Position numbers and translations under genes: made by a program. From a virus: a DNA stretch of 46,722 bases. Location of the stretch: UHGV virus genome UHGV-0200285. One strand, given 5' to 3'. The stretch's first letter is position 1. Each line of letters starts with the position of its first letter. The notes under the pieces were generated by a model that was given only the letters and a program-made list of their open reading frames with translations, searched no databases and was not told the DNA's origin. Positions 1-46,722 of this stretch are shown here, piece by piece.

Positions 1-60
1 GCCCCGTAACCTGTCGGATCGCCGGAAAGGACCCGAAAAATGATAATAATTATCATCTAC
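1..60. other. cos right-end region; window begins with GCCC, the last 4 nt of the lambda-type 12-nt cohesive end
   Basis: First ~800 nt match my recollection of the lambda right end (reverse-complemented); window start reads GCCC+CGTAACCTGTCGGATC. Confidence 0.5.
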
Positions 61-2190: not shown

Positions 2191-2451
2191 ATGGATTACA
2201 CAAATCTACCAAAACAAACTTTTGCTGATTTAATCGCACTCAGGCAAGCAGTCGTAGCCCTAATCAACTTGTTGCCGGAGAAGGAAAAGGAATTAGTTAA
2301 AGCGCTTCTTAACAGAACTGCCGCCGATTTTTCATCATATCCACTGACAGATGACCTTGCGGACCTTCCTGAATTAATTGCAGCGTCCGCCATTAAGCTT
2401 ACTGAAGAGATTTACCCTCCTCAAAAATCTTCACAAAATTCCTGCGAGTAA
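2191..2451 (+). CDS. hypothetical small acidic protein, antisense to the lysis operon
   Basis: ORF 2185..2451; ATG at 2191 preceded by AGAGGTG RBS; converges on and overlaps the 3' end of the 183-aa gene by ~50 nt. Confidence 0.35.
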   Translation: MDYTNLPKQTFADLIALRQAVVALINLLPEKEKELVKALLNRTAADFSSYPLTDDLADLPELIAASAIKLTEEIYPPQKSSQNSCE

Positions 2452-2950
2452 CTTCAATGCAATAATCGTAAAACGCCGCAAACTGCTCATCGCGGCGTTT
2501 TTTTTCATCTTCAGAAGGAATCAGCACCGACAATTTTTTATTCAGATCAGCGACGCTGCCCTCCAGTTTTTCAATGGGCGATTCAATATCATCTTTTTCT
2601 GACCGCAATGCCGTCGGTGGCGTCTTCAGAGAACCAGTAATTCTTCCCGGTAGCTTTCCTTTGTAGGTTATCCACACATTCTGCGCCTCTAAAATTATGG
2701 GGCGCTTTTCCGGCGACTGCTCATCCCCTTCACATAACCCGGCTGCAACTTCCAGGAAGACCTGTCTGATGCTCCTTCTGGCTGCTGCCTCATAAAACTC
2801 CAGCGCGGCACCTTCAACACGGTCCAGCGAGATGTCCAGGTCAAAAATTTCACCGTCAAAGCGTTTTTTGTCCCTTAATGCTACAGTTACCGCAACTTTA
2901 TTCTCAAAATTGCGGATCCCTTTCACAATCAGTTCATAGTTTTGTGTCAT
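2399..2950 (-). CDS. hypothetical protein inserted between holin and endolysin (lysis-cassette cargo)
   Basis: ORF 2399..2971; ATG at 2950 (MTQNYELIV...) with GGGGAGAG RBS, 5 nt after holin stop; soluble, charged, no TM segments. Confidence 0.6.
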   Translation of the reverse strand: MTQNYELIVKGIRNFENKVAVTVALRDKKRFDGEIFDLDISLDRVEGAALEFYEAAARRSIRQVFLEVAAGLCEGDEQSPEKRPIILEAQNVWITYKGKLPGRITGSLKTPPTALRSEKDDIESPIEKLEGSVADLNKKLSVLIPSEDEKKRRDEQFAAFYDYCIEVTRRNFVKIFEEGKSLQ

Positions 2951-4966: not shown

Positions 4967-5005
4967 TCTACTTTTTCTTAACTTCGGGTATACAAAGCCC
5001 ATCGT

Positions 5006-5040
5006 TGAAAAAATTTATCCATATTTTTTGAAAAATGCAA
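5006..5040 (-). promoter_or_regulatory. candidate late promoter pR' (Q-dependent antitermination region)
   Basis: Minus strand reads TTGCAT-N17-TAAATT immediately downstream of the Q stop codon. Confidence 0.4.
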
Positions 5041-5071
5041 GCATCACGTCGCCATCTTCGGCGAAAATCAC

Positions 5072-9641: not shown

Positions 9642-10460
9642 TCACCCCCTGAATCCTGCCGGGATCTGGCTGTAGTCCACTTTGTCGTAACTGGCTTTGA
9701 AGTACGGGTCCTCGCGTCTGGCTGCAGATACCGCAGGAACTTCCCAGGATTCTTCGAAATGACGATCCGGACCAAAGAACGTGACAGCCTGTTTCACAAA
9801 TTGTGTACCGCTATTGCCCATCGCAGATACCCAGCCCGCGTAGCGATTCACACCTTCCAGCATGGTTTCGGGGTTTACCCCCTCGTTCAAACGGGCTTTC
9901 CAGGCTTTGAAGGCTGCTGATTTTGAATTGCCACCAGCACGTTTGGGATATGCCAGCCATGCCTGCTCAAACTCCGGAGAGTATTCCGGTCGGTTTGAAC
10001 GAACTCGCACAGACTCATCAGCAGATGCACCAACAGCTATTGGTTCATTGACTGATTCTTTGACTGGTTCAAAAGAGTGACTGGTTCTGGGTGAATCTCC
10101 TGCACTACCCCCTGGTGCAACTCCTGCACTACCTGGTGAATTTGCTGCACCAGATAGTGAATTATTTGCACTACCCCCTAGTGAATCTCCTGCACCATCC
10201 AGATGAAGGAGATAGATATTACTTGAGTTACCTTTTTCACCTTTCCGGGTGACTTTTTTTACCAGCCCGGACTCACAAAGGGCCGCAATATGATTCATCA
10301 CAGAACGTTTGCTAATCTCGCACTGGTCAGCAATATGCTGGTAGCTGGGCCAGCACTCACCCTGATCGCTGGCATTATCAGCCAGCTTGATCAGAACCAG
10401 TTTTCGCAATGGATTACCCACTCGAATTTTCATCGCTTTAACCATCAGCTCCATACTCAT
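9642..10460 (-). CDS. replication initiator (N-terminal HTH, Gly/Ser-rich linker, C-terminal domain)
   Basis: 272 aa; N-terminus LRKLVLIKLADNASDQGECWPSYQHIADQCEISKRSVMNHIAALCESGLV (replisome-organiser-type HTH); C-terminal PEFEQAWLAYPKRAGGNSKSAAFKAWKA motif; contains iteron-like DNA repeats. Confidence 0.6.
   Translation of the reverse strand: MSMELMVKAMKIRVGNPLRKLVLIKLADNASDQGECWPSYQHIADQCEISKRSVMNHIAALCESGLVKKVTRKGEKGNSSNIYLLHLDGAGDSLGGSANNSLSGAANSPGSAGVAPGGSAGDSPRTSHSFEPVKESVNEPIAVGASADESVRVRSNRPEYSPEFEQAWLAYPKRAGGNSKSAAFKAWKARLNEGVNPETMLEGVNRYAGWVSAMGNSGTQFVKQAVTFFGPDRHFEESWEVPAVSAARREDPYFKASYDKVDYSQIPAGFRG
10040..10260. repeat. iteron-like direct repeats inside the initiator gene (candidate replication origin)
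   Basis: ~22-bp units starting near 10090, 10114, 10136, 10157, 10181 (e.g. GTGAATCTCCTGCAC perfect at 10091 and 10181); GACTGGTTC repeats at 10063-10087; AT-richer flank 10200-10260. Confidence 0.5.
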
Positions 10461-10693
10461 GCTGCACCTCCGAGATGCTTCATGTTTTTTCCGGAGCGAA
10501 AGGCTATAAGCGGCATACTGACGCGGTAATTACGGCCCAGCGGTTCACAAACCACCTTCTGACATTCACGGTCAACCAGGCTAACACGTAGAACATGCCC
10601 TGCAGGCGTGGTATACCACTGACCAACGGTAGGAATTGATGTTTTTTTACGCTGAAGCAAACGGCAAATATTGAGGATCAACGGATTAAGCAT
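10457..10693 (-). CDS. hypothetical protein
   Basis: 78-aa ORF, 4-nt overlap with downstream initiator gene (operon packing). Confidence 0.35.
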   Translation of the reverse strand: MLNPLILNICRLLQRKKTSIPTVGQWYTTPAGHVLRVSLVDRECQKVVCEPLGRNYRVSMPLIAFRSGKNMKHLGGAA

Positions 10694-10919
10694 GACGATG
10701 CCCTCCGCTGATATTCAGAAGACGGTGAATATGAAAATTAGCCTTACCCGCCAGACGAATACGTTCAGCCTGCAAGTTAAGAAGGGTTTCTACCAGAACC
10801 TGATGCGCCTGCGGATCCGAAAGAGTTACCTTGCGCAGAGCACGTAGTGCAGTTGTTACATAACTGAGTTTATGTAAGTCTTCATCATTCAGACGAGTGA
10901 GGGCTGGGACAGTAGCCAT
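10686..10919 (-). CDS. hypothetical protein
   Basis: 77-aa ORF, tightly packed in the early-right operon. Confidence 0.35.
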   Translation of the reverse strand: MATVPALTRLNDEDLHKLSYVTTALRALRKVTLSDPQAHQVLVETLLNLQAERIRLAGKANFHIHRLLNISGGHRHA

Positions 10920-11497
10920 GATGGCAGCCTCCGATAACAGTGAATTTCGCTGGTGGTGAACTGAACGGGGTTGGCGTAACCGGCGTTATCGGAAACCGGC
11001 GCACCTTTCGGTGCCCCCGTCCAGCCCACCATAATTTGGGTGTGCGCAGACGCAGACGATAAAAAAAACGCTGGCGCGTCATATATCGCCGATAACATTT
11101 CCAGGACGCCAATCCCGGCACCCGCTTTATAAGGTGCCTGAACAGTGTAACGTCCCGGAATGGAAGAATCAATGTGCTGGTGGTCCTTCACACTCAACAA
11201 AATCACGCCTGAATTTCCACAAAGGACTAAAGCACTCATGCGGGTAGTCTTTGCGAAGATAGATAACGCGCTGTGTTTCTGGTTCCCAACGAATAACATG
11301 GACATAAAGCCCTCTTCCGTCACGAAACCAGCGGTTAAGTTCCCGCACAACTCGCCCCCCACAGTCAGGTAAAGTTCTCTGTGGTTACTTACAGCCAGGT
11401 GATTTGGTAATCTGCATTCATGCCGTAACAACAGGTGTTCAGCGACACTGACCACCAGCTGTTGCGACAAACGGTTATTTGCCGTTAAACTGTTCAT
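10889..11497 (-). CDS. hypothetical early protein
   Basis: 202-aa ORF; 4-nt ATGA-type overlap with upstream gene; no family recognised. Confidence 0.45.
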   Translation of the reverse strand: MNSLTANNRLSQQLVVSVAEHLLLRHECRLPNHLAVSNHRELYLTVGGELCGNLTAGFVTEEGFMSMLFVGNQKHSALSIFAKTTRMSALVLCGNSGVILLSVKDHQHIDSSIPGRYTVQAPYKAGAGIGVLEMLSAIYDAPAFFLSSASAHTQIMVGWTGAPKGAPVSDNAGYANPVQFTTSEIHCYRRLPSWLLSQPSLV

Positions 11498-12057
11498 GCG
11501 TTAGTTTCTCCACAGACACAAAACGCCACGACGCCCGGAGCTGCACACTCGCGGGCGTCACTCTTTTCTGGGGCGCAAAAGATTTTGTAGACCAGTGCTG
11601 CATGCTCCTGGAGCTTCGAAATTGACAGATACAACTCATCATTAATTGCTGTCTGCTCGTGTGGCTCCACGACCCCATCTTCGATTGCCGAACGAATCTG
11701 CTTTGAGTAATTCCCGATCTGTTCGATGACTTCCAGCAGGCGCTGGTTTATATCGGCGTTCTCTACTTCCTCAATTTCAGGAAGCGATACGAACACCCCA
11801 CCAGCAGACTGTGCGACAGCATCCGCAATGTAGTGAGTGCCAGCCGCGCGCTGTAAAACCATTGCCCATCCCAGCGGGAAAATCTGATCGCCATCGGCAC
11901 GAAGGCGGTTAAATAATGCGTTCTCTGTTACATCCAGCCAGTCAGCTGCTTCAGCGTAACCACCCGGCAACGCTGCGATAGTTTTTCTGACAGCTTTCAC
12001 GTACCACTCAGGCTGTTTTTCTACTTTCCAGTGATACTTACCCACGGTTAGCCTCAT
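11494..12057 (-). CDS. putative CII-like early regulatory protein
   Basis: 187 aa immediately downstream of cro-like gene; assignment by position and vague resemblance to prophage CII-type proteins. Confidence 0.35.
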   Translation of the reverse strand: MRLTVGKYHWKVEKQPEWYVKAVRKTIAALPGGYAEAADWLDVTENALFNRLRADGDQIFPLGWAMVLQRAAGTHYIADAVAQSAGGVFVSLPEIEEVENADINQRLLEVIEQIGNYSKQIRSAIEDGVVEPHEQTAINDELYLSISKLQEHAALVYKIFCAPEKSDARECAAPGVVAFCVCGETNA

Positions 12058-12088: not shown

Positions 12089-12289
12089 TTAATCTTTCGG
12101 ATAGATATCCGGTCTTAAGTCAGATTTCGTAATTGCACCTGACGTGCATTGCTCAAGTTTTTTCGCCAGCACAAAACTGGCTTTTTTATAACCATTGAAA
12201 ACCAGCCGTAAGTAGCCAGGTGTTGAGCCAACTTTTCCGGCCAACTCGCCCTGCTGTTCTTTGGTTAAAGAGTCCCAATACGCTTTCAT
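12089..12289 (-). CDS. Cro-like HTH repressor
   Basis: ORF 12089..12394; ATG at 12289 with GGAGG RBS gives 66 aa MKAYWDSLTKEQQGELAGKVGSTPGYLRLV...; divergent from CI gene. Confidence 0.65.
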   Translation of the reverse strand: MKAYWDSLTKEQQGELAGKVGSTPGYLRLVFNGYKKASFVLAKKLEQCTSGAITKSDLRPDIYPKD

Positions 12290-12379
12290 ACAATATGTAC
12301 CTCCGGTATACATATTACATGATTGAAATGAACCTTCAAGATACTTGCACCTTATCGGTACAAAGGTTTTAATTTCGTT
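12290..12379. promoter_or_regulatory. divergent immunity control region (candidate pR, pRM and operators)
   Basis: Minus strand TTGAAG-N16-TAATAT then GGAGG RBS for cro; plus strand TTGCAC-N16-TTTTAA ending ~7 nt before the CI ATG (leaderless-type); ATACAT/ATGTA-containing inverted repeats at 12295-12325. Confidence 0.4.
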
Positions 12380-13053
12380 ATGAAAACAATCCATGACATC
12401 CGGCGGTCTAACGCCAGAAAACTGAGAGATGGTGTTGGCGGAAATTCATCCTTTGCCACCATGATTGATCGCGAGCCAACCCAAACCAGCAGGTTTATGG
12501 GGGATGGCGCTACTAAAATATCGGTGACAGCATGGCACGGCACATCGAAAAATGTTTCGACCTGCCTGTCGGATGGCTTGATCAAGAACACCAGACAACG
12601 AACATCACAAAAAAACCTGATGTTTCAATCACTAACAAACAAATAACGTTAGTCCCTGTCATATCATGGGTACAGGCCGGAGCATGGAAAGAAGTTGGCT
12701 ATTCTGAGGTTGATTTGAGCACAGCAGAAACTTATCCCTGCCCTGTACCCTGTGGCGAAATGACTTATATCTTGCGGGTGATTGGTGATTCAATGATTGA
12801 TGAGTACCGCCCTGGAGACATGATTTTTGTTGATCCCGAAGTCCCTGCCTGCCACGGTGACGACGTTATTGCATTGATGCACGATACAGGCGAAACCACC
12901 TTCAAGCGATTGATAGAAGATGGAACACAGCGTTATCTCAAAGCATTAAACCCAAACTGGCCTGAGCCTTACATTAAGATTAACGGTAATTGCTCTATAA
13001 TTGGTACAGTGATTTTCTCGGGAAAACCAAGAAGATACACAATAAAGGCCTAA
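12380..13053 (+). pseudogene. CI-like repressor (HTH plus S24 peptidase domain) interrupted by a frameshift in an A4 run
   Basis: Frame 2 encodes HTH (12380..12516); frame 1 from 12517 encodes NIGDSMARHIEKCF...PVGWLD... and S24-type domain (VIGDSM ... K) to 13053; one extra A in 12515-12518 would restore a ~225-aa protein. Confidence 0.6.
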
Positions 13054-13065
13054 TCAATATTTATG

Positions 13066-13089
13066 AACCTGCTTCGGCAGGTTTTTTTA
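13066..13089 (+). terminator. intrinsic terminator after CI
   Basis: AACCTGC-TTCG-GCAGGTT stem followed by TTTTTTTA. Confidence 0.6.
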
Positions 13090-13092
13090 TAC

Positions 13093-13128
13093 TTGACAAT
13101 GTACCCATGAGATACATAATGTATCCAA
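13093..13128 (+). promoter_or_regulatory. candidate pL with operator palindrome
   Basis: TTGACA-N17-CATAAT; overlapping 15-bp perfect inverted repeat GATACAT-A-ATGTATC at 13111-13125. Confidence 0.45.
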
Positions 13129-16548: not shown

Positions 16549-16834
16549 CGTTTATTAGTTTCGATGTTAGCCAACACATCTATGGCACAATGTCAAACCC
16601 AATCTTACTTCCTGCGCTGTACTAGAACGGCCAGCCCTGACTTCATAAATTATTAACCAACTGGGAACAAGTTAGCTAGTTGGTGATGGGTGTCAGTTGT
16701 CGAAAGTCCCCCCCCCACCATCACCACTAGCTGAGACTCTTCAGTGTTACAATTGCTTTAAATGGTTGCCAAAGTACTGAAATCGAGTCTAATAGTAAAG
16801 TTTATATCTCACAAACAGTATATAGGGACAGAGA

Positions 16835-46541: not shown

Positions 46542-46722
46542 TGCTCATTCCACGGACAAAAACAGAGAAAGGAAACGACAGAGGCCAAAAAGCTCGCTTT
46601 CAGCACCTGTCGTTTCCTTTCTTTTCAGGGGGTGTTTTAAATAAAAACATTAGGTTACGGCGAAGAAGAACGGAAACACCTTAAACCGGAAAATTTTCAT
46701 AAATAGCGAAAACCCGCGAGGT
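46542..46722. other. cos left-end region (cosB and first 4 nt of cosN overhang at the window end)
   Basis: Reverse complement of the window end reads ACCTCGCGGGTTTTCGCTATTTATGAAAATTTTCCGG, matching the start of the lambda genome after the first 8 nt of the cohesive end. Confidence 0.6.

Follow-up and report, generated by a model that had tools for sequence, protein, structure and literature searches.

The window, by which we mean the complete 46,722 nt of UHGV virus genome UHGV-0200285, carries a phage repressor gene of the cI/ymfK type that lacks a single nucleotide and is divided over two open reading frames (ORFs). The features of this gene are as follows:

12380-13053, plus strand: frameshifted cI/ymfK-type repressor gene, 674 nt (675 nt, encoding 224 aa, in all relatives), assigned by alignment and by the annotation of the relatives
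12515-12518, plus strand: A4 run, A5 in the aligned relatives; site of the -1 frameshift at codon 46/47
12380-12646, plus strand: 5′ ORF of 88 aa, comprising native residues 1-46 (helices 1-3) and 42 out-of-frame residues
12532-13053, plus strand: 3′ ORF of 173 aa in the frame adjacent to that of the 88-aa ORF, starting at native Met51

We aligned the locus with its intact counterparts of 675 nt in phages 2H10, Ayreon and cdtI and in E. coli 04-00955. Compared with ymfK of the E. coli strain, one A is missing from the A5 run and the rest of the gene is identical in this five-way alignment, the window and 04-00955 sharing 99.8% identity over 801 nt. Identity to the phage cI genes amounts to 95-99.5%. 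The missing A sets the window apart from every relative and is a deterministic difference rather than a statistical trend. The relatives are annotated as cI, as ‘repressor’ or as ymfK ‘LexA family protein’, and always as a single 675-nt gene. The alignment thus bears out the preliminary description, made from the window alone, of a CI-like/LexA-like repressor split by a 1-nt frameshift in an A run. Adding back the A of the A5 run yields ...GDGATKNIGDSMARHIEKCF... at the junction, which is exactly the continuous sequence that had been proposed. A natural organisation as two separate genes, named there as the observation that would speak against a lesion, was found in none of the homologues inspected (best 120 of 591 matches). 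These proteins are 219-249 aa long, apart from shorter entries, and the 11 shorter entries that we inspected are contig-end truncations or other frameshift alleles. All relatives unite the N-terminal domain and the S24 domain in one polypeptide; the window does not.

The 88-aa product has no match in Pfam, and its exact sequence is absent from 153 billion gene calls. The 173-aa ORF retains one half of helix 4 and, after it, helix 5, the linker and the whole of the S24 domain (Pfam PF00717, E=1.4e-26). Its internal ATG at 12532 is present, is preceded at a distance of 4 nt by GGTGA, and the ORF has been called as a gene on 20 public contigs. Three short, unrelated public contigs (L331, L332 and L337) begin within 2 nt of this ATG, at window 12530-12532.

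The position of the lesion within the protein became apparent from a domain map of the intact repressor. In the C-terminal half, Pfam places the S24 domain at residues 93-212, which begins at about window 12656, and the PDB matches of this domain include the C-terminal domains of lambda CI, UmuD and LexA. S138, K176, A100 and G101 are nearly invariant in alignments of 42-43 diverse homologues, and the window encodes the corresponding QAG cleavage site and the GDSM and TFKRL Ser-Lys motifs, all intact. Judging from what is known of the family, these intact catalytic and cleavage motifs suggest that the gene encoded a normal SOS-type repressor before it was hit.

The N-terminal domain matches no helix-turn-helix (HTH) family in Pfam at E<=0.1, and its assignment rests on matches to PDB entries 5D50 and 7NKV, on conservation within the family and on an AlphaFold2 model. 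Residues 1-75 match the DNA-binding domain of Rep from phage SPC32H (5D50, E=5e-4), and the N-terminus shows a weaker match to a 74-aa CI N-terminal domain (7NKV). Both alignments extend through ...KNIGxxxARxIE...WLD, past the frameshift. Among the 42-43 diverse homologues, the invariant residues of the N-terminal domain include G49, A53, E57, W66 and D68, which are all found downstream of the shift, and residues ~72-92 are hypervariable in length and sequence, which marks the linker at residues ~72-90. For modelling, the closest protein match (P0001) was rejected as template owing to an inverted internal segment, and P0010 was taken instead; the model was made on an equal-length homologue of 81% identity. 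It predicts helices at residues 4-19, 22-28, 33-40 and 50-59, a turn at 66-68 and a β-rich domain at 91-215 (mean pLDDT 82.5), and residues 74-85 have a pLDDT below 50, as for a disordered linker. Conservation, the SPC32H Rep match and the AlphaFold2 model agree in placing codon 46/47 in the predicted loop between helix 3 and helix 4 of a five-helix DNA-binding domain.

In the preliminary description, the HTH domain had been assigned to 12380-12516 and the S24 peptidase domain to 12517-13053. The S24 domain indeed lies in the second frame. Since it starts at residue 93, however, 12517-12655 encodes the rest of the DNA-binding domain and the linker and not the peptidase, and the HTH domain itself is cut. 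Nor can the junction be called typical of CI-family linkers, as had been stated, because the shift falls in the helix 3-4 loop and the linker lies further downstream. Judged by their sequences, neither the 88-aa nor the 173-aa product can be expected to combine DNA binding with dimerisation.

The segment of P0001 that is inverted corresponds to window 12667-12750. Here, the inverted repeats GGGTACAGG and CCTGTACCC lie inside cI and flank 65 nt. In this NCBI protein the segment is inverted in frame and matches the minus-strand ORF of the window at that place.

A missing nucleotide in a homopolymer may reflect an error of sequencing or assembly, in which case the real phage would have A5 and an intact repressor. 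The preliminary description had left this open as one branch of an either/or. The position of the lesion in such a run speaks for an error, as do homopolymer frameshifts of the same gene in P0049, P0050, P0068 and CP027323.1. We therefore looked at the distribution of the two alleles. All wild-type relatives that we checked have A5 (127/127 IMG/VR loci and 8/8 others). The A4 allele, searched as an exact 41-nt or 34-nt pattern, occurs nowhere in IMG/VR, GTDB genomes or JGI metagenomes, and none of the 468 E. coli complete-genome records matched by megablast falls into the band of >=99% identity expected of an ungapped A4 match. The allele was recovered solely by exact look-up of the products of the 173-aa ORF and of a 202-aa ORF that is created by a 25-nt deletion elsewhere in the window, both recorded in ENA and Logan assemblies. 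Through this approach, we found the identical A4 allele in ENA metagenome contigs of four assemblies, three of which have distinct BioSample ids. In all four contigs it occurs together with a C allele in a putative operator and with the 25-nt deletion in an Ash-family gene (both described below):

ERZ28651901: VATA19-1_SAMN10275450 scaffold_22, 46,691 nt, equal to window 17-46707, with 100% identity over the 20.6 kb that were read
ERZ28650185 (L454): SAMN10275455, 38,094 nt, with A4, operator C and 25-nt deletion
ERZ652585: NODE_134, coverage 335, with A4, operator C and 25-nt deletion
ERZ28649555: VATT16-1_SAMN05826868, 3-kb contig, with A4, operator C and 25-nt deletion

Furthermore, the assembly of the window is not prone to homopolymer errors. 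Of its 688 homopolymer runs of at least 4 nt, 681 match every covering relative and three differ from all of them; the cI run alone differs from three references. Within the repressor gene, the longer A7, G5 and T5 runs are normal. An audit against five relatives, restricted to sites covered by >=3 references, yielded just three indels private to the window, namely at 5014, the 25-nt deletion at 10943 and the cI site. The companions of the lesion, a deletion at a microhomology and a substitution, are themselves no homopolymer artefacts. As the same A4 allele is found in separate metagenome assemblies and in two genome variants, we consider a sequencing error effectively excluded. This leaves the other branch of the either/or, a repressor that is genuinely inactivated in a clear-plaque or defective state, as the right one. 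The study codes VATA19-1 and VATT16-1 point to a single cohort or sequencing programme as the apparent origin of the samples, so that ‘independent samples’ may stand for one host or a few, or even for a phage carried over in the laboratory.

Different homopolymer frameshifts of the same repressor gene are present in other public assemblies, at G5 12499-12503, A7 12609-12615 and T5 12824-12828. G5 is shortened to G4 in the chromosome of E. coli 2013C-3033 (CP027323.1) and in Logan DRR424407, A7 has become A8 in P0049 and A5 in P0050, and T5 has become T4 in P0053 and P0068, the latter protein having three such shifts.

The four contigs also allowed us to place the lesion in the history of the lineage. 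Its companion deletion affects the following gene:

10686-11206, minus strand: Ash-family transcriptional-regulator gene, disrupted by a 25-nt deletion with its junction at ~10943

This gene (PF10554; ‘transcriptional regulator’ in PHROG) is located in the early-right operon, downstream of the cro, cII-like and DUF4222 genes, and is truncated by the deletion, which lies between AATT microhomologies. The deletion occurs in 0/36 IMG/VR loci, and among the E. coli matches at this site the top-listed genomes span the undeleted 95 nt. In metagenome contigs it always accompanies the cI frameshift. Three of the contigs (ERZ28650185, ERZ652585 and ERZ28649555) belong to a sublineage of their own, marked by an additional 21 nt at 10138. 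ERZ28650185 and ERZ652585 also carry an indel in the late promoter that differs from that of the window; ERZ28649555 ends short of those sites. As A4 is common to both sublineages, the frameshift is inherited and predates their split.

The 38-kb contig ERZ28650185 additionally differs from the window by two larger deletions and a few SNPs. One deletion removes window 17690-19034, with the last 32 integrase codons and half of a DUF4365/TPR gene, and the truncated integrase stops 4 residues after the predicted catalytic Tyr. The other removes window 2292-2879, in the lysis region, and with it the greater part of a DUF1327 gene. Truncation of the integrase fits a lysogeny module that decays once cI has been lost, as would be expected once lysogeny is no longer used.

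Next, we asked in which form this genome is found. Judging from its sequence, the window represents a lambdoid E. coli phage genome in linear form with both ends at cos and with an immunity region of the e14/SfV/2H10 type, cI(ymfK) | cro(ymfT) - cII-like(ymfL). Its left half shares ~97% identity with phage 2H10 and as much as 99.96% with the prophage of E. coli YDC107, its right half is ~97% identical to phage 2G7b and many prophages, and its orientation is the reverse of the lambda map. Relatives of the immunity region are very common. Megablast with 12300-13100 returned 26 phage records and 1327 E. coli records, and of the 5426 complete E. coli genomes, 1324 (~24%) carry the repressor locus at >=90% identity, in up to 3 copies each.

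In prophages, the last base of the window adjoins its first with 4 nt in between. The junction in YDC107 reads ...GGTTACG-GGGCGGCGACCT-CGCGGG..., and we take GGGCGGCGACCT to be a lambda-type 12-nt cohesive end. It is located ~185 nt upstream of the small-terminase gene. Both ends of the window (1-20 and 46700-46722) lie within this 12-nt overhang, of which each retains 4 nt, the central GGCG being missing. Thus, it seems to be linear virion DNA that was assembled in this record. Homology to prophages ends at window 20445, beside host yjjG, and the window continues through this point, so that it carries attP and not attL or attR. Both large contigs of the A4 lineage that we inspected likewise read through attP. 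Contigs with the product of the Ash deletion are all <=50 kb (8 of 8; block counts 1, 1, 0, 1, 5, 0, 0, 0). By comparison, a wild-type neighbour protein is found on host contigs that measure 0.2 to >1 Mb and all encode a 224-aa repressor. None of the contigs found joins the A4 allele to host DNA. Free phage DNA is thus the sole form in which the lineage is seen: its contigs have ends that map to cos or run through attP, and none of them exceeds 50 kb. PhiR49_1 and PhiR49_1_star were considered as a cI-mutant pair and rejected, as cI is intact in both.

The free form bears on a second explanation, in which the A4 genome is a defective prophage of a polylysogen, a homoimmune second prophage makes CI, and the contigs derive from induced virions. 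The abundance of this immunity type in E. coli, with some genomes carrying 2-3 copies, would make such a constellation plausible. Moreover, short contigs break within or next to cI, as if a second similar copy were present, and the largely wild-type operators (see below) mean that the phage should obey a homologous CI. Against it stand the read-through of attP in both large contigs, the lack of any link between A4 and host DNA or of any contig above 50 kb, the truncated integrase of one sublineage and the high coverage of the phage contig (335x). We therefore regard provision of CI in trans as unlikely, though it could apply in a host with a co-resident homoimmune prophage.

To see what the repressor would have controlled, we inspected its surroundings, which contain the following features:

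11494-12045, minus strand: cII-like regulator gene ymfL (Phage_CP76), intact
12089-12289, minus strand: divergent cro-like gene ymfT, YdaS-family HTH, intact
12295-12313: putative cro-proximal OR operator, ATGTACC-N5-TATACAT
12345-12363: putative cI-proximal OR operator, a perfect palindrome TTGTACC-N5-GGTACAA in relatives, with T to C at 12348 in the lineage of the window (TGCACC)
13065-13084, plus strand: intrinsic terminator after the repressor gene, an annotated terminator in Ayreon and SfV
13093-13120, plus strand: PL-like promoter TTGACA-16-CATAAT, the same as in wild-type relatives

Sites of the TGTACC-N5-GGTACA type cluster on both sides of cI, with starts at 12296, 12346 and 13100. 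The two sites with one mismatch in the whole window are these flanks of cI, and 27 sites of the motif were found in total against 12.2±3.8 expected. The sites at 12296 and 12346 fall into the cI-cro spacer, the span that is annotated in SfV as ‘putative operator region’. The third, TGTACC-N5-GATACA at 13100-13116, overlaps the strong PL-like promoter just after the cI terminator. The region thus shows the layout of a lambdoid immunity region: cro is divergent, palindromic operators flank cI on either side, and one of them overlaps a promoter. A sigma-70 scan of the 90-nt cI-cro spacer returned no PR or PRM candidates at the thresholds used. By hand, we assigned TTGAAG-16-TAATAT as leftward and TTGCAC-19-TAATTT as rightward candidate promoter, the latter possibly giving rise to a leaderless cI mRNA.

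The T to C change at 12348 is the sole operator substitution, OL and the other OR site being identical to wild type. A classical ‘vir’ genotype, in which several altered operators in OR and OL permit growth on homoimmune lysogens, is accordingly not what the window carries. With OL and the rest of OR unchanged, the phage should still be repressed by the CI of a homologous resident prophage. None of the 1226 matched E. coli records attained >=99% identity here (the best ones listed have 98.5% and one mismatch), and the C allele was found in 1/103 IMG/VR loci, a prophage contig (L091) in which cI is intact. The allele is thus rare but compatible with lysogeny. A selected ‘virulence’ cluster consisting of the operator change, the cI frameshift and the Ash deletion was considered as well. 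This idea was weakened by private SNPs at 11164, 13700 and 14023, which are similarly dense, and by the same prophage contig.

Taken together, we interpret the window as a natural cI-null mutant that derives from a very common temperate coliphage and is obligately lytic, a reading to which we assign a probability of roughly 80%. Following the inherited A5 to A4 deletion, translation would leave the frame after residue 46, within the DNA-binding domain. As this domain is split, no polypeptide would join a complete DNA-binding domain to the S24 domain for dimerisation and self-cleavage. We infer from this a loss of repressor activity: the OR and OL operators would remain unoccupied, cro and the early operons would run, and infection of any non-immune cell would turn lytic, with a clear-plaque phenotype. 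Such a phage would be unable to maintain lysogeny by itself, and the lineage would persist via lytic propagation.

The split gene might also retain some function, either because a -1 slip on U-AAA-A yields some full-length CI or because the 173-aa fragment, made from the internal ATG, is active, for instance as a dominant-negative partner to a CI that is already resident. Slippage of tRNA-Lys by -1 at ACU AAA AUA would recreate the native TKNIG exactly, and the 173-aa ORF, which might be translated and have some activity, has the GGTGA before its ATG and retains the whole S24 oligomerisation domain. The rare change in the best operator of the lineage would also fit a retained function. However, a slippery heptamer of the type X XXY YYZ is absent at the site, A4 is not a conserved state, an in-frame A5 being present in all other relatives, and a fragment without helices 1-3 would not bind DNA. 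Since the shifted arrangement is conserved in none of the relatives, we see no support for recoding or a functional fragment and consider both very unlikely. The same comparison sets the gene apart from programmed -1 frameshift genes such as dnaX and lambda G/GT. These share with it two overlapping frames at an A-rich site; unlike them, the window lacks the slippery heptamer and its shifted arrangement is found in no relative. Programmed frameshifting, or a naturally split repressor, was therefore rejected as a description of this gene.

A more speculative variant, to which we likewise give little credence, is that the frameshift turns the repressor gene into an anti-immunity gene. Here, the resident CI of a homoimmune lysogen would bind the incoming OR and activate PRM, the PRM transcript would yield the 173-aa fragment from the GGTGA-ATG, and the fragment would enter mixed oligomers with the resident CI and weaken repression, helped by the operator T to C change. 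If this were true, a cI-null phage could prey on the ~24% of E. coli with this immunity type.

Repressor-null mutants of temperate phages have been textbook knowledge since the 1950s. The mechanism by which the cI-null reading explains the window is thus not new; this is a known kind of mutant, and its value is mainly ecological. The clear-plaque mutants of lambda cI likewise have a loss-of-function lesion in a CI that consists of an N-terminal HTH and an S24 domain, encoded divergently from cro and flanked by OR and OL operators, and the same obligate lytic growth with retained sensitivity to homologous immunity would be expected. The C-terminal domain of lambda CI is homologous to that of the window (PDB 1F39 and 3BDN; E~1e-9). 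The two differ in immunity specificity, as the N-terminal domain of the window is not detectably lambda-like and is closest to SPC32H Rep (5D50). Moreover, the lambda mutants are laboratory isolates, whereas the phage of the window represents a natural lineage in metagenomes. Much closer are YmfK of the e14 prophage and the CI proteins of SfV, SfIV, cdtI, Ayreon and 2H10, which are products of the same gene with the same cro/ymfT and ymfL neighbours and the same operator region. All of these are intact at 224 aa, whereas the lineage of the window carries A4, the operator T to C change and the Ash deletion.

A related transition has been described for the Roseburia prophage Shimadzu, of which ultravirulent mutants arose in the mouse gut that carry operator and cro mutations and grow on lysogens (bioRxiv 10.1101/575076). 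In both cases a temperate gut phage is lytic, or in ours probably so, through mutations in the cI-cro region, with abundant free phage (bioRxiv 10.1101/575076). Unlike the Shimadzu mutants, the window combines a predicted repressor null with one operator substitution and an unchanged OL.

Since the lesion is real, the genome should be labelled a lytic derivative with a cI pseudogene. Annotators should neither ‘correct’ this genome nor score it as temperate from its integrase and S24 ORF. If our interpretation is right, a cI-null lambdoid lineage exists in several gut metagenomes as free, cos-ended DNA and has already split into sublineages, which would make it a natural example of a temperate coliphage that left lysogeny. 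With related prophages in about a quarter of the sequenced E. coli, the transition from temperate to virulent in the human gut is testable with existing reads.

Two further sites of length variation were observed outside the immunity region. At window 16708-16716, a C9 tract is two C shorter than in the sole covering relative, E. coli 2022H047, and may be a hypervariable homopolymer between early-left genes. At window 5000-5045 on the minus strand, just downstream of the Q antiterminator gene, lies a putative late promoter, TTGCAT-17-TAAAAT followed by AACGATGGG. The lineage of the window has a 1-nt deletion in its -10 element (TAAATT), and the sister sublineage (L454 and L455) has a different 1-nt deletion, in the spacer; the -10 element is undeleted in all 119 IMG/VR matches that have the exact wild-type spacer. 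That 1-bp deletions arose twice independently within 25 bp suggests parallel selection on late transcription.
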